This document shows, in pieces, positions 4,959 through 64,000 of a stretch of DNA of 64,000 bases (the first letter of the stretch is position 1; each line of letters opens with the position of its first letter). The position numbers and the translations under genes are program-made. Where the stretch lies: assembly GCA_023247795.1 (NCBI GenBank), contig JAHFFT010000001.1, positions 2,868 through 66,867 of the forward strand, written 5' to 3'. This DNA comes from Candidatus Omnitrophota bacterium (GTDB taxonomy: Bacteria > Omnitrophota > Gorgyraeia > Zapsychrales > JANLHA01). A model generated the notes under the pieces. It made no database searches. It was not told where the DNA came from and worked only from the letters and a program-made list of their open reading frames with translations.

Positions 4959-4970
4959 GCGTGGACGATT

Positions 4971-14677: not shown

Positions 14678-15778
14678 TTAATTGGGTCGCGGACCATCAC
14701 TGCCAAGGCCGCCCGGCTGACCACCAACATGATTGGCGTTATTCAGACCCGCGCCGCCCAGACCAGGTCTTTGCGTACCCTGACTTGATAATACCCCAGG
14801 CTTCGGCATGACAGGACCGACAGGCCGATTGCCATTTAACTCTTGATGGCCGGCTCCTTGCCCTTCCATTTGGGGAGATTGGTCGGACTGCATATTCCGC
14901 ATTTGACCTTGTTCTTCTTGACTATGCTCTTGCATCGCTCCCTTCGGTGCTTCATGTTGTACTTTTATCCCTCGCATTTTCTCATACTCGCTTTTCATTT
15001 GTTCTCGACGATCTTGCTGCTCTTCATGAGACGCTTGCATTTTCTCTTGATGCTGCTCTTTCATTTCCTGCAGCTGTTCATGCTCAGCATCCATCTGCTC
15101 TCGATACTCCTGTTGCTCTTCACGAACCGCTTGCATTTTCTCTTGATGCTGCTCTTTCATTTCCTGCAGCTGTTCATGTTGCGCCTTCATTTCTTCTCGC
15201 TGTTGCTGAAATTGTTCTTTATAAGCCTCTGCGCGTTCCGAATTAGCTAACGGCGGTTTTTGGTTAGGCCCGCTTATCAGTGGTCTATTCATTTCGCCCA
15301 TTGAAGCATTGGGACGAGAACCTTCTTGCTGATCACCCATAGGGCCATTATCACGTTGCCCCATCTGATCAGGTTGATTCATTGGTTGCTGCGAACCTTG
15401 ACGGTCATTATCTGTTCGTGGACCAACCTGAGAATTGCCTTGTTCACCTTGCTGCGCACCCGATTGCGGACGATTTTGTTCTCCACCCATACGATTGCCC
15501 TGAGATCCACCCTGGCCTTGCATTCCCGATCCGTTGGGCCGATCGTTATTCATACCAGGATCTCCTCTTTGGCCTCCTGGACCGCCAGAACCACCAGGTC
15601 CACCTGCTCCGCCTTGACCACCTTGATGTCCAGCGTTCATACCCTGTCCCGGACCGCCATGTCCACCTGGACCTCCAGCTCCCGGACCACCACCCGGCCG
15701 CGGCCCTTGCTGGGCGAAAACCACACCCGAAAGCGCTAAGCAAAAAATTCCAATCAAAGCCATGATTCTCATTTTCAT
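14678..15778 (-). CDS. Secreted low-complexity G/P/Q/E/M/H-rich protein
   Basis: Signal peptide MKMRIMALIGIFCLALSGVVFAQQ. A good SD (AAGGAAAGG) precedes the ATG. Composition-biased throughout, with the internal repeat EQLQEMKEQHQEKMQA. Confidence 0.75.
   Translation of the reverse strand: MKMRIMALIGIFCLALSGVVFAQQGPRPGGGPGAGGPGGHGGPGQGMNAGHQGGQGGAGGPGGSGGPGGQRGDPGMNNDRPNGSGMQGQGGSQGNRMGGEQNRPQSGAQQGEQGNSQVGPRTDNDRQGSQQPMNQPDQMGQRDNGPMGDQQEGSRPNASMGEMNRPLISGPNQKPPLANSERAEAYKEQFQQQREEMKAQHEQLQEMKEQHQEKMQAVREEQQEYREQMDAEHEQLQEMKEQHQEKMQASHEEQQDRREQMKSEYEKMRGIKVQHEAPKGAMQEHSQEEQGQMRNMQSDQSPQMEGQGAGHQELNGNRPVGPVMPKPGVLSSQGTQRPGLGGAGLNNANHVGGQPGGLGSDGPRPN
15032..15178. repeat. Intragenic direct repeat (51 bp identical, 96-bp period)
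   Basis: 15032..15082 and 15128..15178 both read CGCTTGCATTTTCTCTTGATGCTGCTCTTTCATTTCCTGCAGCTGTTCATG. Confidence 0.9.
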
Positions 15779-22000: not shown

Positions 22001-22300
22001 CAGGGTTGCTAAAAAATATTTGATCATCTTTTGCGATTCTTCCTTCAAGGCTTGATCAGACAGCGTTTGGTCCCCAGGTGTTACGATGAAATCAAACCGA
22101 AAAGGGTTATTAGGGAAAACCTTCACCCCCTTTAACAAGGCCGGCGCAAAGGCCTGGCTTAGCCCGACCATCGAGCCTGCCTGCGGAAGATTGAGCGGTT
22201 GAATTTGCGCGAAACCATTCCCGGGGCTGATCAGATTGAAAAAAAAAGTGAAAATAATCAGCAGATTGATACTTCGATATTTTTTGATTTGCTTTGCCAT
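16019..22300 (-). CDS. Giant secreted protein (2093 aa), function unknown; two FHA-like segments and a C-terminal domain shared with 60206..64000
   Basis: Single uninterrupted ORF. Signal peptide MAKQIKKYRSINLLIIFTFFFNLISPGNGFA. FHA-like stretches are encoded at ~19427..19600 and ~19033..19190 (FIVGRGAGAELLFANDDKLSGRNFSV...IQDLKSKNGIGVAW). The C-terminal sequence is VGGIDLNPENLELMIQNEGPAIKFDFDPEQIKNLQFDGFLPIIMEIKPVTNLPALIGK. Confidence 0.8.
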   Translation of the reverse strand: MAKQIKKYRSINLLIIFTFFFNLISPGNGFAQIQPLNLPQAGSMVGLSQAFAPALLKGVKVFPNNPFRFDFIVTPGDQTLSDQALKEESQKMIKYFLATLTVPEKDLWVNLSPYEENRIIPEQFGQTEMGRDLLAQDYLLKQITASLIYPEKELGAQFWKEIYEKAYQEYGTTNVPINTFNKVWIVPDKARVYENGATAFVIESHLQVMLEEDYLALDSNRGNKNLGTESLTNTDVGSVSTFSSDIVKKIVLPTIEKEVNEGQNFAQLRQIYNAMILATWFKKKLRESILDSIYVDKNKVVGVDSDDKDGQQQIYEQYIAAFKQGVYNYIKEDYDPYLQASIPRKYFSGGFKGTEVSGVTTIDVSSEAQNLTSAQLENQKVYNASAVVTPVTYYNRMIRLLNTVAKGKKLPENASEDQILNHIVGLLDQNGFLPTASPSIEQQVAAGETLDYEGQQVINQKDLNYKVKVIRIDRGAKETELGKVFDKWVINHMSSKTGAKAGIKAINYFDKVRGEWIVLGFSDDMTEAVEQHELSEINGRVKIKRAREQLGLLEQPAEWVTADQRTGTGAYTEQDREQLLDSNAGRQDKVSTIGTAVESQNPDEDRMIEGIAEALMKDGYSAGDFDDFDAVVAKMSSYMDALEAHPYFGTVDNALMLNFMKTPELQRSYLLGEHATENFLRVKNRVKAKLQERYPQQVSADHLVQYLREMQSDSKENDATFKLLGALLKNDYDAALNYFKQEKVLSLVEKAEIMSELRKKDWLSLGWANRLIYDSDFFPQDARFYHRVYQNLSNLIGIQRSMDNAAVVNSAPKVGATARYMKTKAGKPVVLAPTNNRRGESQTPAPVEFVLLPGRVQWIQPEGGKFWYSIRVVNNQVRVLQHDIKNGPPSNESKVYKISLGELHAFGKNKQIDELYFPNDPNLQSEHCYIVVDPIPGTENYRVKTGTYTDRSITVEWERMVKTKDQVLDDRNMKTREEKVLDTGMQELIDDVWIQAGTGWYRLWVAGDRAYLQAFPDKTIDTALAGDVRAFSVGKEFIVGRGAGAELLFANDDKLSGRNFSVQVLGSEQQGYRFQIQDLKSKNGIGVAWKSAFTLSDKKIQSLAINQRSRFHQSVEKVLITEAMHSEYTPTMLEGRIDDEGKIDFEPTHNDSVGDSYPFKIIATRCGRIFDPDSGNQRYVLQNNKMLKAMPEYLQRAVKFLVADANQDYLDEKKRIKESAQLTDDQKRLILAVILTQQKQLPQAVKILRGKGQQELTASQLITFDMIRRENKFSVNVQKLAAALREGLIAKILGKFEREPEVCTRYFARGMNSVRDQMDDEEAMFAMKKILESSEVVMEYFRQTVASDLERIEATRDDIAELLEAIDLHELDELEPESHVGRIYSRLVLLRESSRFTKLPIKEWSELKPVLAEIGKGFPVRTPKPGVDEDLTDFQQQTIAAIVEGHKESKSDIPLVPVPEAFEDEIEGTAGTEGTMAINEITKADIDRDRIKKTIKKRSPGNVLKIVVQNDEKERNRFKLDVDFPLAKIFQSDPDRYRNILNLIALALDIVLTTNPSDRADFFAQANRLAPVLTANGYHKFTQVPVRSILMTNAERRHELVLLKLQLKENFGQEEILKLERRIERLNTIMAIEVNDEMKKYFLGKDKDGILKLAEYIDQDFIRDVDKELGVKTEGDQADILALITHYLVLVYQFEKAEKVVDLKYVISELIYKYRSYKFSKAVELGRVKRLLIKKNKKAQWRRDEDRVIGEVNSGDYSFKVINAKDAPTKEAFARYVRQNRQNTTEGKPNLFLFHQAFFMHDRIYVLASRDNRMELYYSSDTYSTVTGQYKWKRQEAVMALFDPETGEIQRSWYAKPRSESAHDLSESASAQINQLIESKAFAVTNGESRQTAQEIVNWHLDLGLYFDPTGKVMVRDPETGKPVMAEDNAVQIDFARYPGWAGKAFDFGFGGVWDIAKNQVKKENGDSNDLDLLDQNLVLAPGMKDSFFLGNTNNPQVSAITIAPQNASSEVGGIDLNPENLELMIQNEGPAIKFDFDPEQIKNLQFDGFLPIIMEIKPVTNLPALIGKTVPPNEEQLSYHQETKRVKSLQEF

Positions 22301-22450
22301 GCTTTGTAAATGGTTGAAATTCCGTAATATGTTATACCTTTAAAAGTATAACACCTGATGATAGGAATGAAAGGCGTGGGGGGTTTTGGGAGGAAGCGCT
22401 TTCACGATACTTTAAGGAGGTTAGGGTAGGGACTTCTTTGCAGAGATCAA

Positions 22451-49968: not shown

Positions 49969-50064
49969 ACACATAAACGACCATCGAAGTTAACAATAAA
50001 ATTTGAAGGGTCATTTTACCATCGACCGGCAGGCGCGTCAACATTACCCCATTTCTTTAAAGCG

Positions 50065-50092
50065 ACAAGTTTCAAGTCACAAGTCGCAAGCA
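50065..50092. repeat. Phased CAAGTNN heptad array (3' UTR of 50130..51188)
   Basis: CAAGT at 50065, 50072 and 50079, and CAAGC at 50086. This is the same 7-nt phasing as at 22455..22480. Confidence 0.7.
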
Positions 50093-50129
50093 ATACCTCT
50101 CCCGCAGAGGGGTACCTACGGATTCAGAA

Positions 50130-51188
50130 TCAACGCCGGATGTTAAGCTCGCAGTGGATCTGCTCCAAAGTACTGACAAGATCAAACTTTTGCTGCCACT
50201 GCGGATAATGCGACTGAAACTTGGCTAATCGGGTTATGTACCAGATATGGTCCCCGCTTCGCGGCTGATCCAAATACTTAGTTTTTAACTTTTTACCGCA
50301 AATTTTTTCACACAGTGACGCAGCCTCGATCAATGAACAATTGTTTTTCCGACCGCCGCCGATGTTATAAACCTCCCCCGGCCGTGGGTCCTGAAAATAA
50401 TAATAAAAGGCATTCACCAAATCCCTGCTGTGGATATTGTCACGGACCTGTTTGCCCTGATATCCATAGATCGTATACGTTTCTCCAGACAAACAGCATT
50501 TCATCATATAGGATAAAAACCCATGCAACATGGCCCCGCTGTGTTTGGGGCCGGTCAAGCATCCTCCTCGAAACGATACGGTCTTCATCCCAAAATAACG
50601 GCTATATTCCTGCACCAAAATATCGGCTGCCACCTTCGAGGCCCCGAATAAAGAATGCTTGGAAAAATCAATGCTCATTTCTTCATCGATCCCGGAAAAA
50701 TAAGAATGCTTCGTGGGAAGTTCCCAACGTGTCGCCTGTTCCTCAAACGGTAAAGAATTGGGCCGGTCGCCGTAAACTTTATTCGTACTGGTAAAAATGA
50801 ATACCGCCTGTGGACAATACCGTCGGGATAACTCCAAAAGGTTCAACGTCCCATTGGCGTTGATGCTAAAATCGGTCAAGGGCTCTTTAGCCGCCCAGTC
50901 ATGCGACGGTTGGGCCGCGGCATGGATGATCAGTTGGATGCCTTTTTTAAATTTCTGAAAAATTTTTTCACACGCGCCGAACTCACGGATATCCACATCA
51001 CAATGCCGGTAAGACTTGATATGCTTCTTTAAACGGTCACGGTTCCATCGGGTTGACGCGCTTGGACCAAAGAAATACTTCCGGGCGTCATTATCAATCC
51101 CGACAACATCAAAACCCTTTTTCGAAAAAAATTCAACCGCTTCCGAGCCAATGAGCCCAGCTGAACCGGTGATCAACACGATAGCCAT
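50130..51188 (-). CDS. Extended SDR, NAD-dependent sugar epimerase/dehydratase family (CDP-paratose/tyvelose 2-epimerase-like)
   Basis: [10 protein letters not shown] Rossmann motif, TSTNKVYGD, and [11 protein letters not shown] in the YxxxK position. Confidence 0.8.
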
Positions 51189-51302
51189 TCATCTCCTCCT
51201 ATGACTTCTCCATTTTAATATAAAATCTCGGAATCAAAAACATTTCGTCAAATAATATGAAAGTTGTTGGGCGCGCTACGGTCATCGTGTTATAATTTTT
51301 TC

Positions 51303-52175
51303 ATGAAAAAAATCCCTGATCTTTTCAAACAAAAAGATCGCACCTATTCTTTTGAACTTTTCCCACCGAAGACCGACGTCGGATATCAAAATCTGCTTAA
51401 GACGATCTCTGCGCTCGCTCTTTTGAAACCGGATTTTTTTACCTGCACCTACGGGGCCGGCGGTGGCAATCGGGATAGGACCTTTGATATTGTTCAACAC
51501 ATCCAAACCAATCATCATTTCCCGACGGTGGCACATCTGACCTGCGTTTTGCACACCAAAGACGAAATAAAAAATATTTTAACCAACATTCAACATCGCG
51601 GCATCGTCAATGTTCTAGCCTTGCGGGGCGATCCGCCACAAACTCATCCTGATTGGAAACCAGGGGCCGAGAACTTTCATTACAGCAGCGAGCTCTGCGC
51701 TTTTATCCGTAAACATTTTGGCCAAAATTTCGGCATTGGGGTCGCCGGGTTTCCGGAAGGGCACCTGCTTTGCCCGGACCGCGATCTGGACGCCAAATAT
51801 CTCAAACTTAAAATGGAAAGCGGCGCTGACTTCATCATCACGCAGCTTTTTTTCAATAATCAAGACTATTTCGATTATGTCAAACGACTGCGAGTATTGG
51901 GCGTGACACAACGCGTGATCCCCGGGATCCTGCCGATCACCGATTATCCAGCTCTTTTGCGATTCACGAAAATGTGCGGAGCCACAGTGACCCCTGAAGT
52001 CAAGGAAATCTTTGAACCCATCCAAGATGATAAGGAAAAAACGCTGCAGACGGGAATTGACTTCGCGATTCGACAATGCCGAACCTTATTAGCCGGCGGA
52101 GCTCCGGGCCTGCATTTTTACACCCTCAACAAAACTCACCCCGTTGACGTGATCCTCAAAGAAGCTCGTTGTTAA
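51303..52175 (+). CDS. metF: 5,10-methylenetetrahydrofolate reductase
   Basis: SFELFPPKT, FTCTYGAGG, LALRGDPP and ITQLFF motifs. The ATG at 51303 is preferred over the TTG at 51264. Confidence 0.9.
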   Translation: MKKIPDLFKQKDRTYSFELFPPKTDVGYQNLLKTISALALLKPDFFTCTYGAGGGNRDRTFDIVQHIQTNHHFPTVAHLTCVLHTKDEIKNILTNIQHRGIVNVLALRGDPPQTHPDWKPGAENFHYSSELCAFIRKHFGQNFGIGVAGFPEGHLLCPDRDLDAKYLKLKMESGADFIITQLFFNNQDYFDYVKRLRVLGVTQRVIPGILPITDYPALLRFTKMCGATVTPEVKEIFEPIQDDKEKTLQTGIDFAIRQCRTLLAGGAPGLHFYTLNKTHPVDVILKEARC

Positions 52176-53713
52176 AACAACTGCATCTGATCTTCCGTCT
52201 TAACTTTCTTACGCCGGACAGATATCTTTTCATAACTTTTAAGATCTTCTTCAATATCACGCAGAAAAGGCGTTGGCCGACTTTGATGAGTTTGACCGAA
52301 AAGTTGACGCTGTTTAGCGTGCAATAAATAAAGTTGTTCCTTGGCCCGTGTCATACCAACGTAAAGCAGCCGACGCTCTTCTTCTTTATTGGACGAAAGA
52401 CCCGCTAAATCAAGCGGCAGCAATTTCTCTTCACAGCCGACGATAAAGACAACCGGAAATTCCAATCCCTTGGCCGCGTGCAATGTCATCAAACTCACCC
52501 GTTCATGATCAAAGACCACATCAATCTCCCGAGTTGGACAAACTTCGTCATCGTCTTCGCTCTTCGGTTCATTCACCTGATAAGGGATCCCACTGCGCTC
52601 AAAGGCCTGTTTCAAGGCATGACGCTGGCTATTGAGCCGGTACAGAACAGCAACATCACCAAAGCTGCGGTCGGCCATTTGATCCGCCGCGACCCGCGAC
52701 GAGTCGTACGAAAACAAGCTAGTCCCTCCGACCATTTTTTCCACTTCATGCACCACATATTCCGCCTCTGCCTTTTCCGTCGGGCAGGAATGGATGGTCA
52801 AACGGCCTTGCTGATAAATCTGTGCCGTGATTTTAGCGACCTGGGCATGACCCGACGAGCCGATCATCTGCGATGAGGCTGATAATAAATTTTGCGCGTT
52901 GCGGTAATTCTCCGTCAAGGACATGACCTCCGCCGGCACGAAATCCTGGCTAAAGCTGGAAAAATATTTCACCTCAGAACCACGAAAGCCATAAATGGCC
53001 TGGTTCGGATCGCCGATCGCGGTCAAATGGTTATCGTGTCCGACAACGCATTTTAAAAGTTCATGTTGGATCCGATTGATGTCTTGATATTCATCAACGC
53101 AAATGAACCGATAACATCCCTTTATATCGTCGAGAGTTTTGCGGTTTTTCAAAAATAACCGGTAGGTCTCTAACAACAAATCGTCGAAATCCAACCAGCG
53201 CAGTTCGCGCAGCCGCTGATCATATTCTTTCAAAACTTCCGGTGCCGCCCCGTCAAATTCGGTCGATTTCCACTGCGAGATCTGTTCGAGCCGTTCCTTC
53301 CGCTCTTTGGGTTTGAGCCGCGGCCAAAGGGTCTTGGCCAGAGCAACACGGTCTTCTTGACCAGCCACTTTAAAATCTTCTGCCAACCCTGAATGTTTTC
53401 CGTATTGCTGCAAAACCTGCAGGCACCATTGATGAAACGTCCCCATCACAATCTGCTCCCGAAATTGTGGCCAACGTTTTGCCACACGGCTAGCCATGTT
53501 ATCGGCAGCTTTATGGGTAAAAGTAACGGCTAAAATCTTTTGATGGGATTCCAATTCTTGGGCGAGGAAAGCCATGCGGTAAGTTAAGGTATGGGTCTTT
53601 CCCGTACCCGGACCGGCCACAATCAACAAATGATTTTTGGGGTGGGTGATGGCCTGCCATTGTGCGGCATTCACATCATCGGGCTTTTGCATAGGGGAGA
53701 CAGGGATTGTCAA
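52172..53713 (-). CDS. UvrD/Rep-family SF1 helicase (short, 513 aa)
   Basis: AGPGTGKTHT (I), VDEYQDIN (II), GDPNQAIYGFRG (III), ENYRN (IV), TLHAAKGLEFPVVF (V) and LLYVGMTRAKEQL (VI). Confidence 0.85.
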   Translation of the reverse strand: MTIPVSPMQKPDDVNAAQWQAITHPKNHLLIVAGPGTGKTHTLTYRMAFLAQELESHQKILAVTFTHKAADNMASRVAKRWPQFREQIVMGTFHQWCLQVLQQYGKHSGLAEDFKVAGQEDRVALAKTLWPRLKPKERKERLEQISQWKSTEFDGAAPEVLKEYDQRLRELRWLDFDDLLLETYRLFLKNRKTLDDIKGCYRFICVDEYQDINRIQHELLKCVVGHDNHLTAIGDPNQAIYGFRGSEVKYFSSFSQDFVPAEVMSLTENYRNAQNLLSASSQMIGSSGHAQVAKITAQIYQQGRLTIHSCPTEKAEAEYVVHEVEKMVGGTSLFSYDSSRVAADQMADRSFGDVAVLYRLNSQRHALKQAFERSGIPYQVNEPKSEDDDEVCPTREIDVVFDHERVSLMTLHAAKGLEFPVVFIVGCEEKLLPLDLAGLSSNKEEERRLLYVGMTRAKEQLYLLHAKQRQLFGQTHQSRPTPFLRDIEEDLKSYEKISVRRKKVKTEDQMQLF

Positions 53714-54996
53714 AACAAGACGAGCTGTTCTTTCGCGGTTTCGCGTTCTTGCGGTTGATAAATCTTGATCACACCATATTCGCCGTCGTACCCAGGTTCA
53801 ATATTGACTTTACCTTCGCGCACACGGCGGATCCCTTCCGCTAAAATCGATCCGGCCATTGCCTTGATTTCAGCAAGCGAGGCTTCCCGCAAAATGTACA
53901 TCTCACTGCCCATTTTTGCTAACAGCTCCCTATAGACGCGCTGAACACCTTGCGCGTTCTGTCCCATGCCTTTGGCGTCGGCAATGATCTCTGGCAATGG
54001 AATCAAACTGGTATACGGCCGCCAGCGAGGAGATTTGCGTCCCTCAGGATGGTCAGCCAATTCTTCCACACGGTGCATGACCCCGATCGTGACCGGCTTG
54101 CCCGTTTGCGGATCTAATCCCTTATGCTTGATCGTTTCCTGAGGATGAAGGCGCAAATTTTGGCTGCGTAATCCGTCATAATGGTATTTTCCCTCTTCGG
54201 GAAAAAACTCAACCGTTCCCACGAGACCCTTATTTTGAGGGTCCTTCAGGGCCTGATAAATACCCGAATAAGAAAATTCTGTATCATAAATGGTGGATTC
54301 TCGACCAAGTTTTTGCGGCGAATGCGCATCCGAATGGGAAACCAACGCGTAAGGATCTAACTGACTCAATCGCCAGTTCATCAAAGGGTCCGACGACAAT
54401 CCGGTTTCAACCGCGAAAATATGCGGGCTAAGATCAGCGAAGCAATCGGTCATCTTATCAAAGCCGCTCTTGGAACCCAGCGCTGAGAACCAGGGCGTCC
54501 AGATGTGCGCCGGGATCAGATAACTCATGGGGTCGGATTCCAAGACAATCTCCAAAAGGTCACGGGAATCCAAACCTAAAATCGGCCGCCCGTCGGAAGA
54601 GATGTTGCCGATGGCCCCCAATCGACTTTGGATCTTTTCCGCGGCCTTAAAATCAGGAGCCAAAACCACGTTATGGACCTTGCGGACCTTATCCAGCCTT
54701 TTATAAATGTTTGAAATCTCGACGGTGAGCATGAAGCGCACCTCGCCTTGACAGGCCTTGGGGAGTTCCTTCTGAATTTTTTTTGTGTAAGCACTTTTGA
54801 GTTTGAAAAAACCTTCCTCTGCCGGTTCGAGCTTTTCTTTCAATTCTTTCATCCATCCGGGATGGGCAAAGTCGCCGGTACCGACGACCTGGATCCCCTT
54901 CAACTGCGCCCAGAGGAATAAGTATTCCAGATTGAGATTTTTGCTCGTCGCACGGGAAAAATGGGAATGGATATGAAGATCGGCGTAATAACGCAT
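53710..54996 (-). CDS. PHP-domain protein, endonuclease Q-like
   Basis: MRYYADLHIHSHFSRATSK N-terminal PHP metal-binding motif. SHSDAHS later in the sequence. ~430 aa. 4-nt overlap with the downstream helicase gene. Confidence 0.65.
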   Translation of the reverse strand: MRYYADLHIHSHFSRATSKNLNLEYLFLWAQLKGIQVVGTGDFAHPGWMKELKEKLEPAEEGFFKLKSAYTKKIQKELPKACQGEVRFMLTVEISNIYKRLDKVRKVHNVVLAPDFKAAEKIQSRLGAIGNISSDGRPILGLDSRDLLEIVLESDPMSYLIPAHIWTPWFSALGSKSGFDKMTDCFADLSPHIFAVETGLSSDPLMNWRLSQLDPYALVSHSDAHSPQKLGRESTIYDTEFSYSGIYQALKDPQNKGLVGTVEFFPEEGKYHYDGLRSQNLRLHPQETIKHKGLDPQTGKPVTIGVMHRVEELADHPEGRKSPRWRPYTSLIPLPEIIADAKGMGQNAQGVQRVYRELLAKMGSEMYILREASLAEIKAMAGSILAEGIRRVREGKVNIEPGYDGEYGVIKIYQPQERETAKEQLVLF

Positions 54997-55087
54997 GTTT
55001 TTATGGATGGATTTTGATTTGTCCTGATCCTAACAGATTAAAGGTGATATTGCAATAACCTTATTCTGACCTGCGGGGTCTACTGCG

Positions 55088-56257
55088 CTAATGATAGTAT
55101 TGGGAAAAGAGATAAAAATTGCGGCCGATAGCGATGAGTAGAAAAATGACGATATTGATAACGAAGAAATCATAGACCGGCTTCCAAGGCTTCAAACCTT
55201 CGATCGATTTGAGAATGAAATAAAAGACGAGTGGCGAGAGAAAAAGCGTCAGACGCTCACCGGTAAACGGATACTTTTTAATGATTGACAAGATAAACAA
55301 TTCGCATAATAAAAAGGCTCCGATGACCCCTGCCGTTTGGACCTTGAACTTCTCTCTTACCATCGCGACTAGCCCAAACCTAACCAGGCCATAAAGAAAA
55401 AATGGGATCAAAAAACTGCTCCATTGAATAAATACTTTTTCTTTCCCATACCAAGTCGTAGCTAGCCGGCGCAGACCTTCCCAGAAACTTTCCATAAAGC
55501 AGCCAAAGGAATGCGTGCAGATAAAATAAGATTCCCAATATTCGATCAGCGGTTGATGGGTGGTCGAATATCGCAAATCGGTCAAATAAACAAAAACAAC
55601 AACCAGCCCGGTTAACAAGAAAAAAATTACGGCGGGCTGATCCAGCTTTGGGGACAGTCCCTTAAGGGACTGTCCCCCACCACGGATGATTTCTGCTAAA
55701 AAATTCAAAATCAGAATACCCATAAAAAAAATAGCGGCATAAGAAAACAGCAAGCAGAACGGCAGCAACCAAAAGAAATACCTTGGCTGTTTTCCGCCTA
55801 AAAGATAAAATGTAAAAATCCCAGCAACGAGAACATCCATACTGTACGGCTTAAATTCTGCAGCATAATAACCAAAAAAATAACTTCCCCCCATCATCGT
55901 CAGTGCCAAAGCATAACTGGTCTTGTCGATGAAAACCTGTCGAAAAATTTTCTGCCAGACCCAAAAAGCCAAAATCATCGCGACGAGTGGAAATAAACGC
56001 AAAACCGGAACCGGATAACCAAACGGCTGGCTGACCGCTTTGATCAACATGAGATAAACCCGCGGGAAGGCTTGGGAATGGTCCAACAGCCCTAAAAGCC
56101 CCGAATAAGAAAACCTTTGGATATTATCGAGAAGAAAAAGTTCATCCATCCATAAGGGACGAGCTGAAAAATAATGCAAAAGTGCCAATGCAAGAAACAG
56201 CGTCCAGCTGCCGATATCAATCCATCTTAGAGAAAGCCTCTGAGAGAATCTAACCAT
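55088..56257 (-). CDS. Polytopic membrane protein (possible GT-C-fold glycosyltransferase)
   Basis: About 11 hydrophobic segments. An acidic first-loop motif PLWMDELF resembles the GT-C DE/DD motifs. No other motif recognised. Confidence 0.4.
   Translation of the reverse strand: MVRFSQRLSLRWIDIGSWTLFLALALLHYFSARPLWMDELFLLDNIQRFSYSGLLGLLDHSQAFPRVYLMLIKAVSQPFGYPVPVLRLFPLVAMILAFWVWQKIFRQVFIDKTSYALALTMMGGSYFFGYYAAEFKPYSMDVLVAGIFTFYLLGGKQPRYFFWLLPFCLLFSYAAIFFMGILILNFLAEIIRGGGQSLKGLSPKLDQPAVIFFLLTGLVVVFVYLTDLRYSTTHQPLIEYWESYFICTHSFGCFMESFWEGLRRLATTWYGKEKVFIQWSSFLIPFFLYGLVRFGLVAMVREKFKVQTAGVIGAFLLCELFILSIIKKYPFTGERLTLFLSPLVFYFILKSIEGLKPWKPVYDFFVINIVIFLLIAIGRNFYLFSQYYH
55650..55677. repeat. Perfect 28-bp palindrome inside a coding sequence
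   Basis: GGGGACAGTCCCTTAAGGGACTGTCCCC is its own reverse complement and encodes GGQSLKGLSP within 55088..56257. A related GTCCCTAAAGGGAC lies at 46128..46141. Confidence 0.85.
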
Positions 56258-56301
56258 GCCCCTATGATGGATAAAAAATTTTTATTTTTCAAGCGGAATA
56301 T

Positions 56302-56335
56302 AAAAAACAACCCCGGGAGTTAAACCCCCGGGGTT
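56302..56335 (-). terminator. Intrinsic terminator after 56368..57024
   Basis: Minus-strand RNA is AACCCCGGGGGUUUAACUCCCGGGGUU followed by GUUUUUU. Confidence 0.8.
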
Positions 56336-56367
56336 GAAGCCAAAGGCGAACTTCGCCTTGAGCGAGG

Positions 56368-57024
56368 TTACTTCTTTGCAAAATACTTGGCTGCTTTATC
56401 TTTGCCGCCTAGCCCATAAGCCAGGGCAAGAGCAAGCACCACACCGCCAAAAAGAATATAGAACGGGGTGCCGACAAAGATCTCGCCGAACCCAAGTTCG
56501 ATGACCGTTACCTTGATGGCATAGATCGTAATGGCCCATCGAGTTACGCGTTCATAGATCTTTGGCTTGGGAAAACCGACGTGCGTGGTGATGACATAAA
56601 TGACGCTTGCAACCACCTTCGCTATGATTAAGCCCAACGCCAAAGCTAATACGGCTGCGACAACCTGCGGCAAATAAGCCACAGTGCCAGAGATCATGCC
56701 GCCCGACATCGTCACTCCGAGGTGATCAACCGTCATCAAAACAAAGATGACCATAACCACCAAGTGGACCAATGAAGCAACCAGATCACTGAATTTATGC
56801 TTTACCCCACCTTTATGAAGAGCCCCTGACAAGCCAATCTTGTCAGAAAGAATGTCAAACTTGAGCTCTGTCAATAATCGGTGAAAGATAACGCGCAGCA
56901 CTTTAGCCACAAAAATACCGACTAATAGAATTATTAGTGCGCTGACCAAAGTGGGGACGTAACTCGCTACCTTATAGACCATGTCTCGAAACGGTGACAG
57001 TAATAAAGTATCGATTGTAGTCAT
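56368..57024 (-). CDS. Small integral membrane protein with MscS-N-terminal-like conserved TM helices
   Basis: ATG 57024 is preceded by AAAGGAGGGG. The ORF-track start at 57081 would lie inside the leader terminator. LVSALIILLVGIFVAKVLRVIFHRLL resembles the conserved TM helix of mechanosensitive-channel N-termini. No MscS beta-domain is present. Confidence 0.6.
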   Translation of the reverse strand: MTTIDTLLLSPFRDMVYKVASYVPTLVSALIILLVGIFVAKVLRVIFHRLLTELKFDILSDKIGLSGALHKGGVKHKFSDLVASLVHLVVMVIFVLMTVDHLGVTMSGGMISGTVAYLPQVVAAVLALALGLIIAKVVASVIYVITTHVGFPKPKIYERVTRWAITIYAIKVTVIELGFGEIFVGTPFYILFGGVVLALALAYGLGGKDKAAKYFAKK

Positions 57025-57078
57025 TTTAATCCCCTCCTTTCTTTTAACCATTGCTGCCTGCATCATCAGCTGTCGTAA

Positions 57079-57112
57079 CAAAAAAGGCCCAGACTTTGAA
57101 TCGATCTGGACC
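57079..57112 (-). terminator. Intrinsic terminator (riboswitch expression platform)
   Basis: Minus-strand RNA is GGUCCAGA-UCGAUUCAAAG-UCUGGGCC followed by UUUUUUG. It lies upstream of the SD/ATG at 57024. Confidence 0.8.
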
Positions 57113-57143
57113 TTAGATATGCGTAAAATCAGTTGGACTGCTA

Positions 57144-57226
57144 TTGTTGCAGCCCGGCCACCATAGAAGTATCCTTAGGTCCGAGGCTTTGCGCCCTTAA
57201 GTTTCCTTAAGTTTGCCTTTCGAGAG
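57144..57226 (-). promoter_or_regulatory. c-di-GMP-I (GEMM-I) riboswitch aptamer
   Basis: Minus-strand RNA is CUCGAAAGGCAAACUUAAG-GAAA-CUUAAGGGCGCAAAGCCUCGGACCUAAGGAUACUUCUAUGGUGGCCGGGCUGCAAC. It has the GEMM-I core plus a GAAA tetraloop and both halves of the 11-nt tetraloop receptor (CCUAAG / UAUGG). Confidence 0.9.
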
Positions 57227-57267
57227 TCCTCCCCTACTTTTCTCACCTCTGAGAACCTCTCAATTAG

Positions 57268-57295
57268 AGCATATCACATTTTGGTGGTTTGACAA
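57268..57295 (-). promoter_or_regulatory. Candidate promoter for the riboswitch leader
   Basis: The minus strand reads TTGTCA - 16 nt - TATGCT, about 40 nt upstream of the aptamer. Confidence 0.3.
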
Positions 57296-57454
57296 GGTGG
57301 CTAGAGGGAATTAGACTAGAATCATAATATATTGAAAATAAATGAGTTATGGATTAGACATTTACAGATCCCTAAAATGAAGCATGCTCGCAACCAAAAT
57401 CGCGCCTCAAGAGAATCAAATGGGAGCCAAGTCCGGATCTGACTCACTTTTTAT

Positions 57455-57512
57455 ACTTAAAAACAATCTCAGGTCGTACAGCGGCTGGATATTGATGATG
57501 GAGACAAAACTT
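57455..57512 (-). repeat. Orphan copy 1 (most decayed) of the 3' end of gene 60206..64000
   Basis: 57474..57510 TCGTACAGCGGCTGGATATTGATGATGGAGACAAAAC aligns to 60234..60273 with a 3-nt deletion. It would encode FVSIINIQPLYDL. Confidence 0.7.
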
Positions 57513-57538
57513 GTGTGAATAGAAAAACTTCCTCAAAA

Positions 57539-58720
57539 TTATTCATTCAAAGATTGTATCCGTTGATAACAATCAAGAACATTCAGGTAGGAATGAATTG
57601 AAACATCTTCCCTGTTAAATTCATTTTTGCCTCCATAAACGACAGCCCGGCCCAACATATCTTTGCCAGCCAAACGCTTTAGAAAATCAAGGCCTTTAAA
57701 AAATTCCTCATGTATGGTCTGCCCCGCTTTGATTTCGACACTCATAATCCGGCGGGCCTTTTCGATGATCAGGTCCACCTCGCTGCCGTGATTATCCCTA
57801 AAAAAATAAAGCGGCGCCTCTCGCCCCTGCGACCAAAAATATTTCAAGAATTCAATGACCACAAAATTTTCAAACAAGGCACCCCGCAAAGGATCACGGC
57901 TCATCTGAGAAGACTTTTCGATCCCCAGCAAATATGCCGCGAGTCCGGTATCGTAAAAATACATTTTAGGGGCCTTAATGATCCTTTTCTTCCAATTACG
58001 GTAATAAGCTGGAAGCAAAAAAACCACATAGCTCGCTTCCAGAACAGACATCCATTCCTTGATCGTCGTATGCGAAACCCCTAAGTCATTGCTGATACTA
58101 GAGAGGTTAAGTATTTGACCGATCCGCCCGGCGCATAGTTTCAAAAATTTCTGGAATGAAGAAAGGTTCTTGACATTGATGACCTGCCGCACGTCCCGTT
58201 CCACATAGGTCGCGACATAGTCGCGCATCGCGTCGGAAGGGTCAATCTTTTGATCAAAAATCCTGGGGAAAAACCCTGTGTGGACAATGTCATCCGCTGT
58301 ACGCTTTTGGATCAAAGAACGGATTTCCTCCACCGAAAAGGGCAAAAGTTTCAGGACGGCCGTACGGCCGGCCAAAGACTGCCGAATGGACCGCAATAAC
58401 AAAAGGTTCTGACTACCACTGAGAATATACAGACCATTTTTGTTACGTTCATCGACAATCCCCTGAAGATAAGAAAGGATTTCCGGGACCCGTTGGACTT
58501 CATCCAGAATAGCTCCTTCAGGATAACGGCCCAGAAACCCCCTGGGATCCTGCATGGCTAGTTCACGAATATCCGGAATCTCAAAAGAAAGATAAGATTT
58601 TTTGGGGAAAACTTTACGGCACAACGTGGTTTTGCCGGATTGCCTAGGCCCGGTCACCGAAACAACCGGATAATGTCTGGCGGATTCCCTGAGTTTGGCT
58701 TCAAGAATTCTAGTGATCAT
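57539..58720 (-). CDS. AAA+ ATPase with C-terminal PD-(D/E)xK nuclease-like domain (AAA_14/DUF4143-type architecture)
   Basis: ATG 58720 gives MITRILEAKL. Walker A GPRQSGKTT, Walker B AILDEVQRVPE, and C-terminal GSEVDLII...MSVEIKAG (D...ExK). The ORF-track extension to 58864 reads through repeat copy 2. Confidence 0.75.
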   Translation of the reverse strand: MITRILEAKLRESARHYPVVSVTGPRQSGKTTLCRKVFPKKSYLSFEIPDIRELAMQDPRGFLGRYPEGAILDEVQRVPEILSYLQGIVDERNKNGLYILSGSQNLLLLRSIRQSLAGRTAVLKLLPFSVEEIRSLIQKRTADDIVHTGFFPRIFDQKIDPSDAMRDYVATYVERDVRQVINVKNLSSFQKFLKLCAGRIGQILNLSSISNDLGVSHTTIKEWMSVLEASYVVFLLPAYYRNWKKRIIKAPKMYFYDTGLAAYLLGIEKSSQMSRDPLRGALFENFVVIEFLKYFWSQGREAPLYFFRDNHGSEVDLIIEKARRIMSVEIKAGQTIHEEFFKGLDFLKRLAGKDMLGRAVVYGGKNEFNREDVSIHSYLNVLDCYQRIQSLNE

Positions 58721-58791
58721 AAATAAACCATACCACATCTTGTACAGTTTGCAAGTTAAATATTCAATTAGTACAGATTTGTTCTCAAACC

Positions 58792-58909
58792 TTAATTCCC
58801 AAAAAGGTCGACAGATCGTAAAGCGGCTGGACATTGATGATGACCGGGACAAAACCTGGAGCATTTTGCAATTGTTTGAGCAGGGCGGGATCGAGATGAA
58901 ATTGGATTT
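58792..58909 (-). repeat. Orphan copy 2 of the 3' end of gene 60206..64000 (118 bp, about 89 percent identical by hand count)
   Basis: Aligns base for base with 60210..60327, with 13 mismatches by my count. It retains the frame KIQFHLDPALLKQLQNAPGFVPVIINVQPLYDLSTFLGIKV-stop. No homologous sequence lies upstream of it. Confidence 0.85.
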
Positions 58910-58976
58910 TTATGGAATACACAATTCTTCGGTTGTTTTAAAAATATTATTGACAAAGGCTCCATATTCGTCGAAA

Positions 58977-60161
58977 ATGGAGTCTATGCAATACATATTA
59001 AGACTGACCGAAAACGATATCCAAAACTCTTTACAACGCAATAAAAGTGTTTTATTGTTGGGCGCTCGTCAAACCGGTAAAACAACCCTCATTCAGCGGC
59101 TGCCGGCCGACTTGTCGATTTCCTTTGTCCGTCCGGATGTCAGGCAGCAATACGAAAAAAACTCCACGCTTTTAGTGGGAGAAGTTGAAGCACTAAAGAG
59201 CAAAACGCCCGCGGCTCGCCCCTTGGTTGTTTTAGATGAGGTCCAGCGTGTCCCAGAAATACTCGACATCGTTCAGGATCTCATTGATCGAAAAATAGCC
59301 AACTTTATTTTAACCGGATCCTCCGCAAGAAAATTACGCCATGGATCTCACATCAACCTTCTTCCGGGAAGAGTGACGGCTTTAAAACTAAATCCACTTA
59401 ACATTCAAGAAATTCCGCAAACAGATCTTAAAACGCATTTGCTCTACGGCTCTTTGCCGGCTATTCATCAGGTTACTTCACTGAAAGACAAAGAAATCGA
59501 CCTAAGCTCTTATGTCATCACCTACCTCGAGGAAGAAATCCGTGCCGAAGCGATTGTTAGAAATTTAGGGCCGTTTGCCCGCTTTCTGGAATCAGCGGCT
59601 ATTGAATCAGGAAAGGTCGTGAACTTCAGAAAACTTTCTCAAGAAATCGGTGTTGCCCACACAACCATTGCCTCTTATTATCAAATTTTGGAAGACTGCC
59701 TGATTGTCGAAAAAATAATGCCACTGACAAAAAGCGAAACACGCAAAAAGCTGACCAAAACCCATAAATATATCTTTTTCGATATGGGCGTTCGACGGCT
59801 CACCGCGCATCAAAATACTCAATTGACCAAAGAAATGTGGGGATATCTGTTCGAACAATTCATTGGACTTCAGCTCATTCAACTAGCCGAGCTCTCCGAT
59901 AAAAATATCCAGATCAAATTTTGGCGAGATCCCGATGGCCCGGAAGTAGACTTTATTGTCGACAACAATCATAGCTACTTGCCTCTAGAAGTCAAATGGA
60001 CAAAAAGCCCTACAGCAAAAGACGTTAAACATCTGAAAGTATTCTTAAATGAATATCCCAATGCTAAACAAGCCTATCTCATCTGCCAATGTGAGCGGGA
60101 TGTTGCCCTTGAAAAAAACATTACCGCAATCCCCTGGCAAAAAATAAAAAATATTTTTTAA
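58977..60161 (+). CDS. AAA+ ATPase with C-terminal PD-(D/E)xK nuclease-like domain (second, divergent paralogue)
   Basis: ATG 58977 gives MESMQYILRL. Walker A GARQTGKTT, Walker B VVLDEVQRVPE, and C-terminal GPEVDFIV...LPLEVKW. The ORF-track start at 58695 is an antisense read-through of repeat copy 2. Confidence 0.75.
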   Translation: MESMQYILRLTENDIQNSLQRNKSVLLLGARQTGKTTLIQRLPADLSISFVRPDVRQQYEKNSTLLVGEVEALKSKTPAARPLVVLDEVQRVPEILDIVQDLIDRKIANFILTGSSARKLRHGSHINLLPGRVTALKLNPLNIQEIPQTDLKTHLLYGSLPAIHQVTSLKDKEIDLSSYVITYLEEEIRAEAIVRNLGPFARFLESAAIESGKVVNFRKLSQEIGVAHTTIASYYQILEDCLIVEKIMPLTKSETRKKLTKTHKYIFFDMGVRRLTAHQNTQLTKEMWGYLFEQFIGLQLIQLAELSDKNIQIKFWRDPDGPEVDFIVDNNHSYLPLEVKWTKSPTAKDVKHLKVFLNEYPNAKQAYLICQCERDVALEKNITAIPWQKIKNIF

Positions 60162-60205
60162 TAAAATATTCAGCCATACCTATTTTTCCTCAGAATCGGA
60201 TCGCT

Positions 60206-63200
60206 CTATTTAATTCCCAAAAAGGCCAATAAATCGTACAGCGGCTGGACATTGATGATGACGGGGACAAAACCCGGGGCATCTTGCAGTTGCTTGAGTA
60301 GGGCGGGATCAAGATGAAATTGGATTTCACCGTTCTGATTTACTTTCAGGTTCATTTTGTTAGGATCGAAATCAATACCACCAAGCTGATCAGGACGATC
60401 CGACATCTCCGGTGCTGCGTCCTCACCTAACATCAACCGATCCGACGCTCCTCCGCCATTGGGCTTCTGATTTTGTAAACTGTCCTCTGCATTACTTTGC
60501 ACTTCTCTAATTTTAGCTTCAATGCGATTGACCGCGTCAGGGTACAATTTACCTTCAACGAAATCGGCCTCATTCAAAGGAACCCAATATTTCGCTTCAA
60601 TCTTCTCTATCCCAACACCGATTAAATCATTGGAATGGTTTTCAAAATGTTCACGCATCAATGCGAACGCATCGGCTGTAGATAAATATTTTATCATTTT
60701 AATAAAATCCACACTGCTGTTTATCGCAGCAACTTGCTTAGTTAGTCTTTCCTCGATATCCAATTCCATTAATTCTGTCTTGTCATCCAAGGTTGGCGTA
60801 TACTCCCCTAATTTTTGAATATATATTGTATGTTCTTTCCCTTCCTCAATGTCACAAGAATAGCCAATGTTGCGCAAAATAATTGATAATATTTCTTTAT
60901 CCTTATATTCACTGTCAAATAAAATGAACCAACCATCATTCTCAAGGACACGCATAACCTCTTTTAAGACCACCATAAAATCTTTGATCGAAATAAAATA
61001 TACCATCACAAAAGACTCGTTGATAATGTCTATGGACTGATTACTAAATGGTAGCCGACGGAGATCACCATTGACAAGCTGCACACCTGGCAACGATTGT
61101 TTAGGATCGATATCCATATCAATGCCTATCCCTTCTACTTGATCACCTAATTCTTTCCTAAGTTCGACCAACGCCCTGCCTTCTGGACCAGAACCCAAAT
61201 CTAAAACCCGCAATTTACCTGGCGCCTTTCGCGCCAGATGGTCTTTGATCAGCTCCAAATGTTTTAGCAAATAATCCGGTCTATTACTATCACGGGCATA
61301 TTTCTGATGAAACACCTCCCACAAAAAAATCTCGTCTTTCTCAAGAGTCCCCAATTCTTTCAGACGATTTATTAATCTTCCCACAATCTTACCTTGCAAA
61401 AGTTCTTGCATATTAAACTTTCTAAAATATTGGACCATAATCATGCCAAGATGTTCTGGGATTGGCTTTTGAATTCCACTGAAACGAAGCCATCCTTCGT
61501 TTAACAGTCGCACTTTTTCATCCATGCTCAAAGACTCCTCCCCCAATTTAACACTCAAAATTTCTGCGAATTTTTCAACATCATCTCCGGTCTCATTCAA
61601 TATTCCCTGAAATATATCCTGACCAAGCATTAGACGATCCGCTGTTTCTACAGTAGCAGACGGCTCCGCCAAATCCCTCATCGCCATTTCATCTAATATT
61701 TCAATAGAAGGATTCTTTGCCATCCTGATCTGCTCCGGCTCTAAAACCGCGATATGAATATTCCTACTCCCAAACATAACCGCATCTTCATCTTGCAGCT
61801 CTCTCAATCCTGTAAAAAATAAATTATCGTATGCTTTTCCCAAAAATTCTGTGACATTGACATATTCAGGATGCCGTTCAATGACATTCAAAGGTTTTCT
61901 GACATTCAAAAAAGCAGACATTAAAATCTTCTTTACTGTATTAGGGACATATAATTGCTCTCCATTAATTTTTATAAGATGACAATTAATTTTATTTGGT
62001 GCTAATCCATCAAATAAATCAGCAAGCTCTGATTGAACAAACAAATTCTTTCCATCAAAAACTACGATTCCAGGTTTCTTTGTAAACGATACCCGATCCA
62101 GATTCTCTGCGTTTTCGATAAATTCATTCCATTTTTTAAACACTGCAGGCGTATCGGTAAGATTAAACTTTTCTTTTAGCAGAGATAACATGCTTTTTAA
62201 AAATTTAAATCTAAAATAGCTAAATTCATTCACAACAAAATCTCGATCTGAAGAGAAATAAAATGCATGTCTTTCACCAAAATCAAAATTCCTGCGCGCA
62301 TTTTTATCAAATTCATTAAATTCCCTGCCAGTTCCATGATAAAAAATTTTGGGCTCACCGGTTTCGGCATCAATCATTTTCGAGGCTAATTCGGGATGAT
62401 TTATCCAATCTCCAAACCATGCGATAAAATCAGGATCTCTCACTTGTAAAAAATGTAGGAGCCCAAGTTTAGAGGGTTTGCCATTTGGCGCTTTCAATTC
62501 AACCACTTTTCCATCTTGAATTTTAATGTTTCCATTCAAAACTTCTCTATTAAAAATCTGCTTATAAATTTCTATATCAATATGATCATCATATCTTTCT
62601 GTCAATGTTGACAACATCAATCGATCAAATCGCCCAACTTCATCCGCTGTTTCTACAGCGGCAGGCGGCTCCGCCAGATCCCTCATCGCTTGATTGCGCT
62701 CGGTGATCTGCTGATCGAGATCAGCGCTGCTACGCATCTCGATTCGATAGACCATTGCTTGCTCGCTTATCATCTCTTCAACCACTTTTTGGAATAAAAC
62801 CGCTGTCTCCGGCGAAGAATGGATGACCCTTCTGTAAATCTCCCTCTGATTTTTATCATTAATCCGCCAATAGGAAACATATCTCCTTATGAACTCTTCC
62901 ATTGATAAATCCAAAGGAACCCACCCCCATTCCGATTCCGGCAATTGCCTGATGAACGCGATCGTCGCTGCCGGTAAATTCAATCGCCGCGGCAGAACCT
63001 CATTAAAAATGCTGTCGCGGGACGGACTTTCAACGCCAATGGTATCCGCAAATCGATCCAGATGGTATAAACGAAACAGCAAGGCTCCAAGATGATCATC
63101 TCTCTCTTTCATCAGCGCCCTTTCCACAGCAAAATCAAAAAATTCTGCATTCGCAACATTGATTCTCTGGGCAACAAACAGCTCTTTCATAATTTTTTGA

Positions 63201-64000
63201 TGACCTTTTCCAGCAAGTGATTGGTACACCTCCCAAAGCAATCGTACCTGCTGTTTTTCGTTCAAATGTCTTAAAGGGATAAGTTGCTGAAGTCGTCTCG
63301 CCAGTTCCTCAAAATTCCTTGCCGTCATAATTGGATAAATCAATGTGGATGAAGACAGCCCCATCAATTCCGCGATCTTTGTATAAGCCCTTATCAGATC
63401 TCGATAATCTTTTGCCTTTTTAAAAAGTATTTTTTTTCGCGTGTAAATTAAGCTATACGGTGAGACGCTGCTCAAATCGCGATTCTCCAATGCATAAGCA
63501 ATGATTTCATCTTTAAAACGTTTAAAGGCATCGAATTCCGCGTCAAACATCTCAGGAGTTTGATTTGGATTGACATTGATTTTCCTTAAAACATTTTTTC
63601 TAAAAAAATAATTGTGAAGTTCATGATGAAATTCGTGTCTTGAGGTACTGTCGTCTTTAAAAATTTTGGTTTCTTGCAAGCTTTTGGCTAATTTGGGCCT
63701 TGGTAATAGCATAAACCCCACATCTCTGCTATTACTGCTCATAAAACAAACAGCCACTCCATTAAAAATAAATAATTTTTGATCACGGAGCAATTCAAAA
63801 AAAGGATCTTCAACTTCCAGCATAAACACACCCGGTTTGATTTCGATCAAAACTCCAGCTTTCCGATTTGCTTGGACGTCGCTCGGGCCAATCTGATATT
63901 GTTTAATGAACTCTAAAACCTGTTTCAAATCTTCCGCAATCTTCTTTGCTCCCCTATTGAAACCATTTGCAATGATAGCAACTGACAGAAAATACAATAC
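60206..64000 (-). CDS. Large modular protein (at least 1263 aa; 5' end probably beyond the right window edge): HExxH module, YHGT ART-like module, class-I SAM methyltransferase module, shared C-terminal domain
   Basis: The frame is open to the window edge, and the track start is a TTG 3 nt from the edge. HEFHHELH at ~63614..63640. FYHGTGREF at ~62331..62345 and AFYFSSDRDF...SY at ~62247..62266. VLDLGSGPEG at 61179..61207. C-terminal LGGIDFDPNKMNLKVNQNGEIQFHLDPALLKQLQDAPGFVPVIINVQPLYDLLAFLGIK at 60209..60388. Confidence 0.8.
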   Translation of the reverse strand, partial: VLYFLSVAIIANGFNRGAKKIAEDLKQVLEFIKQYQIGPSDVQANRKAGVLIEIKPGVFMLEVEDPFFELLRDQKLFIFNGVAVCFMSSNSRDVGFMLLPRPKLAKSLQETKIFKDDSTSRHEFHHELHNYFFRKNVLRKINVNPNQTPEMFDAEFDAFKRFKDEIIAYALENRDLSSVSPYSLIYTRKKILFKKAKDYRDLIRAYTKIAELMGLSSSTLIYPIMTARNFEELARRLQQLIPLRHLNEKQQVRLLWEVYQSLAGKGHQKIMKELFVAQRINVANAEFFDFAVERALMKERDDHLGALLFRLYHLDRFADTIGVESPSRDSIFNEVLPRRLNLPAATIAFIRQLPESEWGWVPLDLSMEEFIRRYVSYWRINDKNQREIYRRVIHSSPETAVLFQKVVEEMISEQAMVYRIEMRSSADLDQQITERNQAMRDLAEPPAAVETADEVGRFDRLMLSTLTERYDDHIDIEIYKQIFNREVLNGNIKIQDGKVVELKAPNGKPSKLGLLHFLQVRDPDFIAWFGDWINHPELASKMIDAETGEPKIFYHGTGREFNEFDKNARRNFDFGERHAFYFSSDRDFVVNEFSYFRFKFLKSMLSLLKEKFNLTDTPAVFKKWNEFIENAENLDRVSFTKKPGIVVFDGKNLFVQSELADLFDGLAPNKINCHLIKINGEQLYVPNTVKKILMSAFLNVRKPLNVIERHPEYVNVTEFLGKAYDNLFFTGLRELQDEDAVMFGSRNIHIAVLEPEQIRMAKNPSIEILDEMAMRDLAEPSATVETADRLMLGQDIFQGILNETGDDVEKFAEILSVKLGEESLSMDEKVRLLNEGWLRFSGIQKPIPEHLGMIMVQYFRKFNMQELLQGKIVGRLINRLKELGTLEKDEIFLWEVFHQKYARDSNRPDYLLKHLELIKDHLARKAPGKLRVLDLGSGPEGRALVELRKELGDQVEGIGIDMDIDPKQSLPGVQLVNGDLRRLPFSNQSIDIINESFVMVYFISIKDFMVVLKEVMRVLENDGWFILFDSEYKDKEILSIILRNIGYSCDIEEGKEHTIYIQKLGEYTPTLDDKTELMELDIEERLTKQVAAINSSVDFIKMIKYLSTADAFALMREHFENHSNDLIGVGIEKIEAKYWVPLNEADFVEGKLYPDAVNRIEAKIREVQSNAEDSLQNQKPNGGGASDRLMLGEDAAPEMSDRPDQLGGIDFDPNKMNLKVNQNGEIQFHLDPALLKQLQDAPGFVPVIINVQPLYDLLAFLGIK
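61637..62689. repeat. Intragenic ~49-bp direct repeat encoding the inter-module linker
   Basis: 62641..62689 and 61637..61685 (CCGCTGTTTCTACAG..GCAG.CGGCTCCGCCA.ATCCCTCATCGC) encode AMRDLAEP(P/S)A(A/T)VETAD, each followed by DRLML. A third DRLML is encoded at ~60428..60445. Confidence 0.8.

Follow-up and report, generated by a model that had tools for sequence, protein, structure and literature searches.

Two genes in the 64,000-nt stretch of Candidatus Omnitrophota DNA analyzed here (the window) encode fusions of a P-loop ATPase with a nuclease-type domain. Our preferred reading is that they are independent, self-contained members of the defense-candidate family PDC-S01, which would act as nucleoside triphosphate (NTP)-gated nucleases in genetic conflict and would have arrived separately, by recombination, beside one large gene; we give this reading a probability of roughly 0.6. 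Both are ordinary intact members of the AAA_14-DUF4143 family (COG1373, PADLOC candidate PDC-S01) and add nothing new in kind, the family being already catalogued as an unvalidated defense candidate. They are not a conserved two-gene unit and, on this reading, not a functional pair. The genes, and the residues assigned to the motifs of gene 1, are as follows.

57539-58720, minus strand: gene 1, 393 amino acids (aa), with P-loop NTPase, helical domain, winged helix and PD-(D/E)xK domain
Within gene 1: Walker A at G24-T31 and Walker B at D73-E74; PD-(D/E)xK domain at about residues 279-393, with E284, D309, D316, E329 and K331
58977-60161, plus strand: gene 2, 394 aa, with the architecture of gene 1 and every catalytic motif intact

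An earlier note on this DNA had described the genes as a divergent pair of AAA+ ATPase/PD-(D/E)xK nuclease fusions carried as the cargo of a repeat array. The two open reading frames (ORFs) do lie there in opposite orientations, and every motif that had been quoted is present: the Walker A sequences GPRQSGKTT in gene 1 and GARQTGKTT in gene 2, LDEVQRVPEIL in both proteins, and the nuclease motifs EVDLII...VEIK (gene 1) and EVDFIV...LEVKW (gene 2). Pfam AAA_14 (PF13173) matches gene 1 at 3e-26 (92.5 bits) and gene 2 at 2e-21 (76.5 bits), and C-terminal to it in both proteins DUF4143 matches over the full length of its profile at 4e-51 (173.3 bits) and 6e-29 (101.4 bits), respectively. All four matches exceed the Pfam gathering cut-offs (27 bits for AAA_14 and 28.1 bits for DUF4143), which bears out the proposed fusion. 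No transposase or integrase domain was found in either protein with Pfam, where a match to nSTAND_NTPase5 stayed below threshold (18.7 versus 34 bits), and an NCBIfam search returned no family for either protein. The PADLOC screen assigned both genes to PDC-S01 (PDLC04790) as a single-gene system, with E-values of 3e-105 for gene 1 and 7e-65 for gene 2 and seven PDC-S01 models matching each. The function is poorly defined, as the note had said, and the family is filed among defense candidates.

In a motif alignment of the two paralogs with 19 relatives, the FE(N/Q), RD, ExD and ExK motifs are invariant. The predicted structures consist of an ORC/STAND-like nucleotide-binding module and a winged helix followed by a restriction-endonuclease-fold domain, and the restriction-endonuclease-like core fold that characterizes the PD-(D/E)xK superfamily is present in both models. 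The domain reading of the note is thereby confirmed; its "AAA+" is better described as ORC/STAND-like. As had also been proposed, the two proteins are paralogous but diverged (30% identity, E = 3e-44 by BLASTP); this identity and the opposite orientations led us to reject a tandem duplication of one ancestral gene. Judging from sequence and predicted structure, each protein is most likely an NTP-gated DNA nuclease, in which nucleotide-dependent assembly or DNA binding by the winged helix would license cleavage at the restriction-type active site. Its role would lie in genetic conflict, either as defense against invading DNA or as selfish persistence.

DUF4143/COG1373 was placed in the PD-(D/E)xK superfamily, with function unknown, in 2012 (PMC3424549). 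PDC-S01 has been ranked the fourth most common "defense" in prokaryotes, as a candidate whose experimental validation is pending (PMC12988326), and it tops the single loci of rumen genomes in frequency (PMC13356809). These recent surveys count its hits in the tens of thousands, and the family is among the most abundant uncharacterized "defense" families. COG1373 also appears in a list of genes shared horizontally between genera (PMC10782964). Homologs below 1e-10 number in the thousands for each of our two genes, the nearest ones being from Omnitrophota. Among species-representative genomes we counted at least 585 confirmed loci, the best 80 of which span nearly all bacterial phyla at about 50% identity. 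The family was found on 385 of 72,556 plasmids and in 10 of 50,697 phage records, all ten from one fecal metagenome set, while IMG/VR yielded 10 loci and a metagenome scan nine. The family is overwhelmingly solitary and nearly absent from phages.

The locus is variable, as the earlier note had supposed. On a contig of a close relative, a gene 96% identical to gene 1 lies 26 nt past the large methyltransferase gene of that contig; downstream of it come the channel and membrane genes that are also found in the window, and gene 2 is missing. The relatives thus differ by an insertion or deletion that comprises gene 2 and one copy of the repeat. Further copies, 84-89% identical to gene 1, occupy unrelated loci: between hemN and hemE (L001), after a helix-turn-helix gene (L004), beside a Y1 transposase (L097) and beside a cold-shock gene (L101). 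Across contexts the ends of the gene 1 unit coincide, with DNA homology beginning about 60 nt before the ATG and stopping about 25 nt before the stop codon; between the window and L001 and L004 it amounts to 81-82% and extends from 58777 to 57567. Terminal inverted repeats were not found at the unit ends. A search for tRNA genes at 50000-64000 found none, and integration beside a tRNA was rejected.

A second family member occurs within 5 kb in 9 of 80 loci, in any orientation and with varying similarity. Such neighbors in any orientation, together with the solitary gene 1 of the relative, disfavor a two-gene system, and the idea of the divergent pair as a unit did not survive. Among these neighbors, Omnitrophota locus L016 has a divergent pair of family genes at 3660-4838 (minus strand) and 4947-6185 (plus strand), which adjoins IS66-like transposase fragments and a 123-nt repeat that is 100% identical between its two copies (1551-1673 and 3486-3608).

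What had been called a repeat array is the functional 3' end of the large gene plus two displaced remnants of its last 15-40 codons. The large protein carries ART-PolyVal and S-adenosylmethionine (SAM) methyltransferase domains, both named from Pfam, and a C-terminal domain (CTD) of about 60 aa, which we searched with a hidden Markov model (HMM). The relevant features are these.

60206-63997, minus strand: 3' part of the large polyvalent gene, 1263 of 1797 aa, running past the window end
60206-60327, minus strand: repeat copy C, the functional last 40 codons (IQFHLDPALLKQLQDAPGFVPVIINVQPLYDLLAFLGIK and stop) of the large gene; CTD HMM 6e-29
58748-58909, minus strand: repeat copy B, in which these 40 codons (58792-58909) persist as a displaced, in-frame remnant; CTD HMM 6e-22
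57432-57510, minus strand: repeat copy A (SIINIQPLYDLRLFLSIK, core 57470-57510), a remnant that is shorter and more decayed; CTD HMM 2e-4

The length of 1797 aa was taken from protein P0317, which is 100% identical over a 71-aa query. Copy B, in the divergent intergenic region, is 89% identical to copy C, and over roughly 45 nt more its 3' flank is still about 70% identical; correspondingly, the sequence beyond copy C matches the flank of copy B more weakly, as far as about 60160. Copy A lies 28 nt downstream of the stop codon of gene 1 and is followed by a terminator-like hairpin at 57445-57424. Despite the opposite orientations of the genes, each ATPase gene is bracketed by repeat copies. 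A 27-mer of the array occurs three times at no more than two mismatches against zero expected, so the array is real, but it is small, and to speak of its cargo goes too far: it consists of one gene's 3' end and two remnants. A second gene in the window (16019-22339) ends in the same domain, and we rejected it as the source of the remnants, since copies A and B resemble copy C (83-89% identity) far more closely than that gene (60-78%).

Similar repeats occur at other members of the family. We surveyed 77 loci and 339 shifted control positions for bracketing repeats of local sequence, with a threshold of at least 30 bits, and found them at 13 of the 77 family genes (17%) versus 8 of the controls (P = 7e-6); paralogous genes or insertion sequence (IS) fragments account for several of the control hits. 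The repeats hug the ORF, with gaps of about 75 nt before its start and about 20 nt after its stop. At L001 the gene lies between two copies of a 32-nt repeat, a duplication of the 5' end of hemE. In L095 and L026 the repeat is the 3' end of a convergent neighbor, duplicated upstream of the ATPase gene just as for gene 2, and in L040 and L070 the end of the ORF runs into the repeat. Some bracketing repeats are terminator-like hairpins and may be generic. Functional and remnant copies could be compared codon by codon in the following pairs.

Window, copies C and B: 11 synonymous and 3 non-synonymous changes
L095: 15 synonymous and 4 non-synonymous changes
L026: 10 synonymous and 2 non-synonymous changes
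L001: 3 synonymous and 1 non-synonymous change

Duplication in place, followed by free decay of the remnant, predicts that about 67% of changes are non-synonymous. The pooled counts over these four coding pairs and 148 codons are 39 synonymous and 10 non-synonymous changes, which rejects duplication in place (P = 3e-11; P = 0.002 for the window pair alone). This synonymous bias indicates that the copies are separate functional alleles of diverged lineages that were recently joined, and hence that they reflect host recombination rather than footprints of transposition. The same bias counts against a dedicated cassette mechanism and points instead to recombination between diverged alleles. The post-stop flanks of copies C and B are about 70% identical and raw synonymous divergence is about 0.4; the flank identity fits a joining of alleles.

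Under our preferred reading, two separate events would have brought genes 1 and 2 to positions just past the stop codon of the large effector-like gene. In each event, host recombination would have joined DNA of a diverged relative to the resident locus, whether by one-sided homologous recombination with an illegitimate join inside the neighbor's gene end or through a circle that integrated with the gene and part of that gene end on board. Each would also have left behind a displaced stretch of 15-40 codons from the end of the large gene, giving rise to the three-copy array.

The association between the CTD and the ATPase genes is local to this site and does not reflect a general link. The domain (consensus GGIDLTPAKMNLQ...EIKFHLDPAMLKQLQNAPGFVPVIINIQPLKDL..FLG) ends both large proteins of the window (60206-60421 and 16019-22339, both minus strand), and its HMM gives four matches in the window, namely the two genes and the two remnants. 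No match was found in 111 other loci, about 105 of which contain a family member, and the second CTD gene of the window has no ATPase gene beside it; a general link to proteins with such C-terminal domains is not supported. We found the domain in 1576 representative proteins of 70-2061 aa, always at the extreme C terminus. It has no Pfam family and resembles a tag for sorting or secretion.

The two genes lie in long ORFs at 57539-58864 (minus strand) and 58695-60161 (plus strand), which overlap by 170 nt because each extends upstream beyond its real start. Family alignments and HMM envelopes place the start of gene 1 at M49 (MITRIL, 58720) and that of gene 2 at about M95 (MESMQ, 58977), so that the genes stand head to head with a spacing of 256 nt. 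The public gene call of gene 2 (P0197) comprises 473 aa from an upstream start, and this extension is probably an annotation artifact. Both upstream extensions (58695-58976 and 58721-58864) cross repeat copy B, on opposite strands. The starts leave two leaders.

58721-58777, minus strand: leader of gene 1, which moves together with gene 1
58910-58976, plus strand: leader of gene 2, between remnant B and the start codon, with the repeat boundary at 58909

The leader of gene 1 contains a conserved block, TTGAATATWTAACTTGCAAAnTGTACA, that is kept in five unrelated contexts. By its motifs it likely carries a promoter (TTGCAA, a 16-nt spacer and TGnTATGGT, ending about 7-9 nt before the ATG), and a promoter scan of the region did not report this predicted site. 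The -10-like TGnTATGGT recurs 7-9 nt before the ATG in the window (about 58727-58785), in L001 (9943-10000) and in the upstream regions of L004, L097 and L101. A -10-like site so near the ATG suggests that the gene 1 mRNA may be leaderless or nearly so which, if true, would make gene 1 portable across phyla. For gene 2 the promoter-like site at 58950-58978 is a consensus match only and overlaps the first 2 nt of the start codon. The motif TTGAAT(A/G)T also stands in direct orientation near both ends of the gene 1 unit, at about 58762-58769 and about 57578-57585 in the window and at equivalent positions in L001, L004, L097 and L101. One copy lies at the left edge of the shared leader and the other, encoding YLNV, about 20 nt inside the right edge; this pairing may be due to chance only.

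Several observations weigh against our preferred reading. A profile of 26 relatives gave nothing significant by sequence against solved structures. The note had called such a combination of domains typical of defense, and PDC-S01 is listed as a candidate, but the only representative tested gave no protection: cloned in Escherichia coli B and exposed to phages T4, T5 and T7, it fell outside the set of four systems that protected (bioRxiv 10.1101/2024.09.26.614923). Scans with Pfam, PADLOC and NCBIfam found no recognizable defense island in the immediate neighborhood. The synonymous test draws on a small sample, and the difference in gene 2 between relatives may be a gain or a loss. Finally, the gene 1 unit has sharp common ends in five unrelated loci, and recombination between alleles at one locus leaves its entry there unaccounted for.

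This last point bears on a different explanation, that of a selfish homing-like nuclease gene that would cut near its own site in genomes lacking it, so that repair from a carrier copy would bring in the gene along with some donor flank, and the host would gain nothing. In favor of this, the unit is a discrete single gene with a compact predicted promoter and the same ends in five unrelated loci, and it is repeatedly found 3-150 nt from the end of a conserved gene with foreign-allele tracts alongside. The pile-up of several members at one site in 9 of 80 loci, the near absence from phages and the great abundance of the family despite the negative defense test point the same way. Yet no known homing endonuclease has this architecture, duplicated flanks are not a usual product of homing, a defined target site is lacking and bracketing repeats accompany only 17% of loci. 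All of the evidence is also compatible with passive transfer of a beneficial gene. We regard homing as unlikely. Slightly more doubtful is the general form of this idea, in which PDC-S01 genes would be single-gene selfish elements of about 1.25 kb (promoter plus ORF), instead of or besides being defense genes. If true, their own ATPase-nuclease would break DNA beside conserved genes and they would spread through repair from carrier alleles, which would explain the sharp ends, the foreign-allele tracts and displaced gene ends, the pile-ups, and the abundance despite the negative phage test.

The bracketing repeats had initially suggested transposition with long target-site duplications, in which an autonomous, transposon-like element would insert through long staggered cuts made by its own ATPase-nuclease, duplicating 20-160 nt of target each time and so giving rise to the repeats. 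Local repeats do tightly bracket a single ORF at many loci, enriched over controls, and the ORF end enters the repeat in L040 and L070. The copies, however, differ mainly at synonymous sites and so are separate alleles, the unit has neither terminal inverted repeats nor a transposase or integrase domain, and some of the repeats are hairpins of a possibly generic kind; the synonymous test and the lack of inverted repeats led us to reject such transposition, and of all the explanations this has the least chance of being right. It is also very improbable that the two genes form a functional pair (a heteromeric system) or, as in orphan toxin-immunity modules, provide immunity or maintenance for the large polyvalent protein. 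Their head-to-head arrangement beside an ART-PolyVal/methyltransferase protein, the divergent pair in L016 and the displaced gene-end remnants, which recall the orphan modules of polymorphic toxin loci, would suit this explanation, but it must contend with the relative that has gene 1 alone, with neighboring members of varying similarity in every orientation, with the confinement of the CTD association to this site and with the solitary habit of the family. Equally improbable is a housekeeping DNA-repair or regulatory factor of the host. A winged helix with an ORC-like ATPase could serve DNA transactions, and a UvrD-like helicase and a PHP-domain protein are encoded just 2.5 kb from here, but the patchy, horizontally transferred distribution, the many paralogs per genome, the variable contexts and the loss or lack of one copy in a close relative are hard to square with such a role.

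Those nearby genes overlap on the minus strand at 52172-54996. One product is a TIGR00375 PHP-type protein of 428 aa, the other a short UvrD-like helicase of 513 aa that matches Gabija GajB models at 8e-87. The neighbor of the helicase gene, at 53710-54996, is the gene of the TIGR00375 protein, which has no PADLOC match. We rejected Gabija for this gene, as no GajA ATPase-TOPRIM partner was found beside it; the two genes may be an uncharacterized two-gene DNA-processing unit. Within the large polyvalent gene, a 48-nt repeat that is 92% identical occurs at 61637-61684 and 62642-62689 (peptide AMRDLAEP(S/P)A(T/A)VETAD) and seems to mark module boundaries of the protein. The G+C content over this gene (60001-64000) is 0.38-0.39, against 0.42-0.50 elsewhere in the window, which is consistent with a foreign origin of the gene. 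Elsewhere, a 96-nt tandem repeat of 2.1 copies with 82% matches lies at 14994-15199, within the ORF at 14678-15778.

The locus offers a clean natural example of how such genes move. It displays single-gene units with their own predicted promoter landing at the ends of neighboring genes, and displaced gene-end remnants whose nearly synonymous-only divergence points to recombination between diverged alleles. This matters for the reading of "defense system" counts, and for the choice of nuclease and ATPase experiments and of experiments that set homing against defense.

The best structural matches to the N-terminal 230-250 residues of the predicted structures are the archaeal Walker-type ATPases PABY2304 (2qen) and SSO1545 (2fna) and, likewise, STAND NTPases (NB-ARC, CED-4, Apaf-1 and Avs5); the matching region covers the putative nucleotide-binding, helical and winged-helix domains. 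Unlike these ATPases, the proteins described here have no N-terminal effector and no C-terminal sensor repeats; a TPR, LRR or WD40 domain is absent, the nuclease follows directly after the winged helix and gene 1 ends with it at residue 393. Can2/Card1, Cap4 and McrBC are likewise PD-(D/E)xK defense nucleases under nucleotide control, with a sequence identity of just 9-15%. They are controlled by a CARF or SAVED sensor or by the separate McrB GTPase, whereas here the P-loop ATPase, as the predicted control element, is in the same chain. In Rhs and contact-dependent inhibition (CDI) polymorphic-toxin loci, one recombination after another within a conserved part of a large effector gene leaves pieces of its end displaced in a row beside small accessory genes. 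The window resembles such orphan modules in its row of displaced end fragments beside small accessory genes, but the conserved segment here is an extreme C-terminal tag and not a junction ahead of a variable toxin tip, and the accessory genes are not immunity genes and are mostly found without such a neighbor. PDC-S01 itself remains the closest comparison: both genes match its HMMs end to end and have an equal two-domain architecture and length, with no difference in kind.

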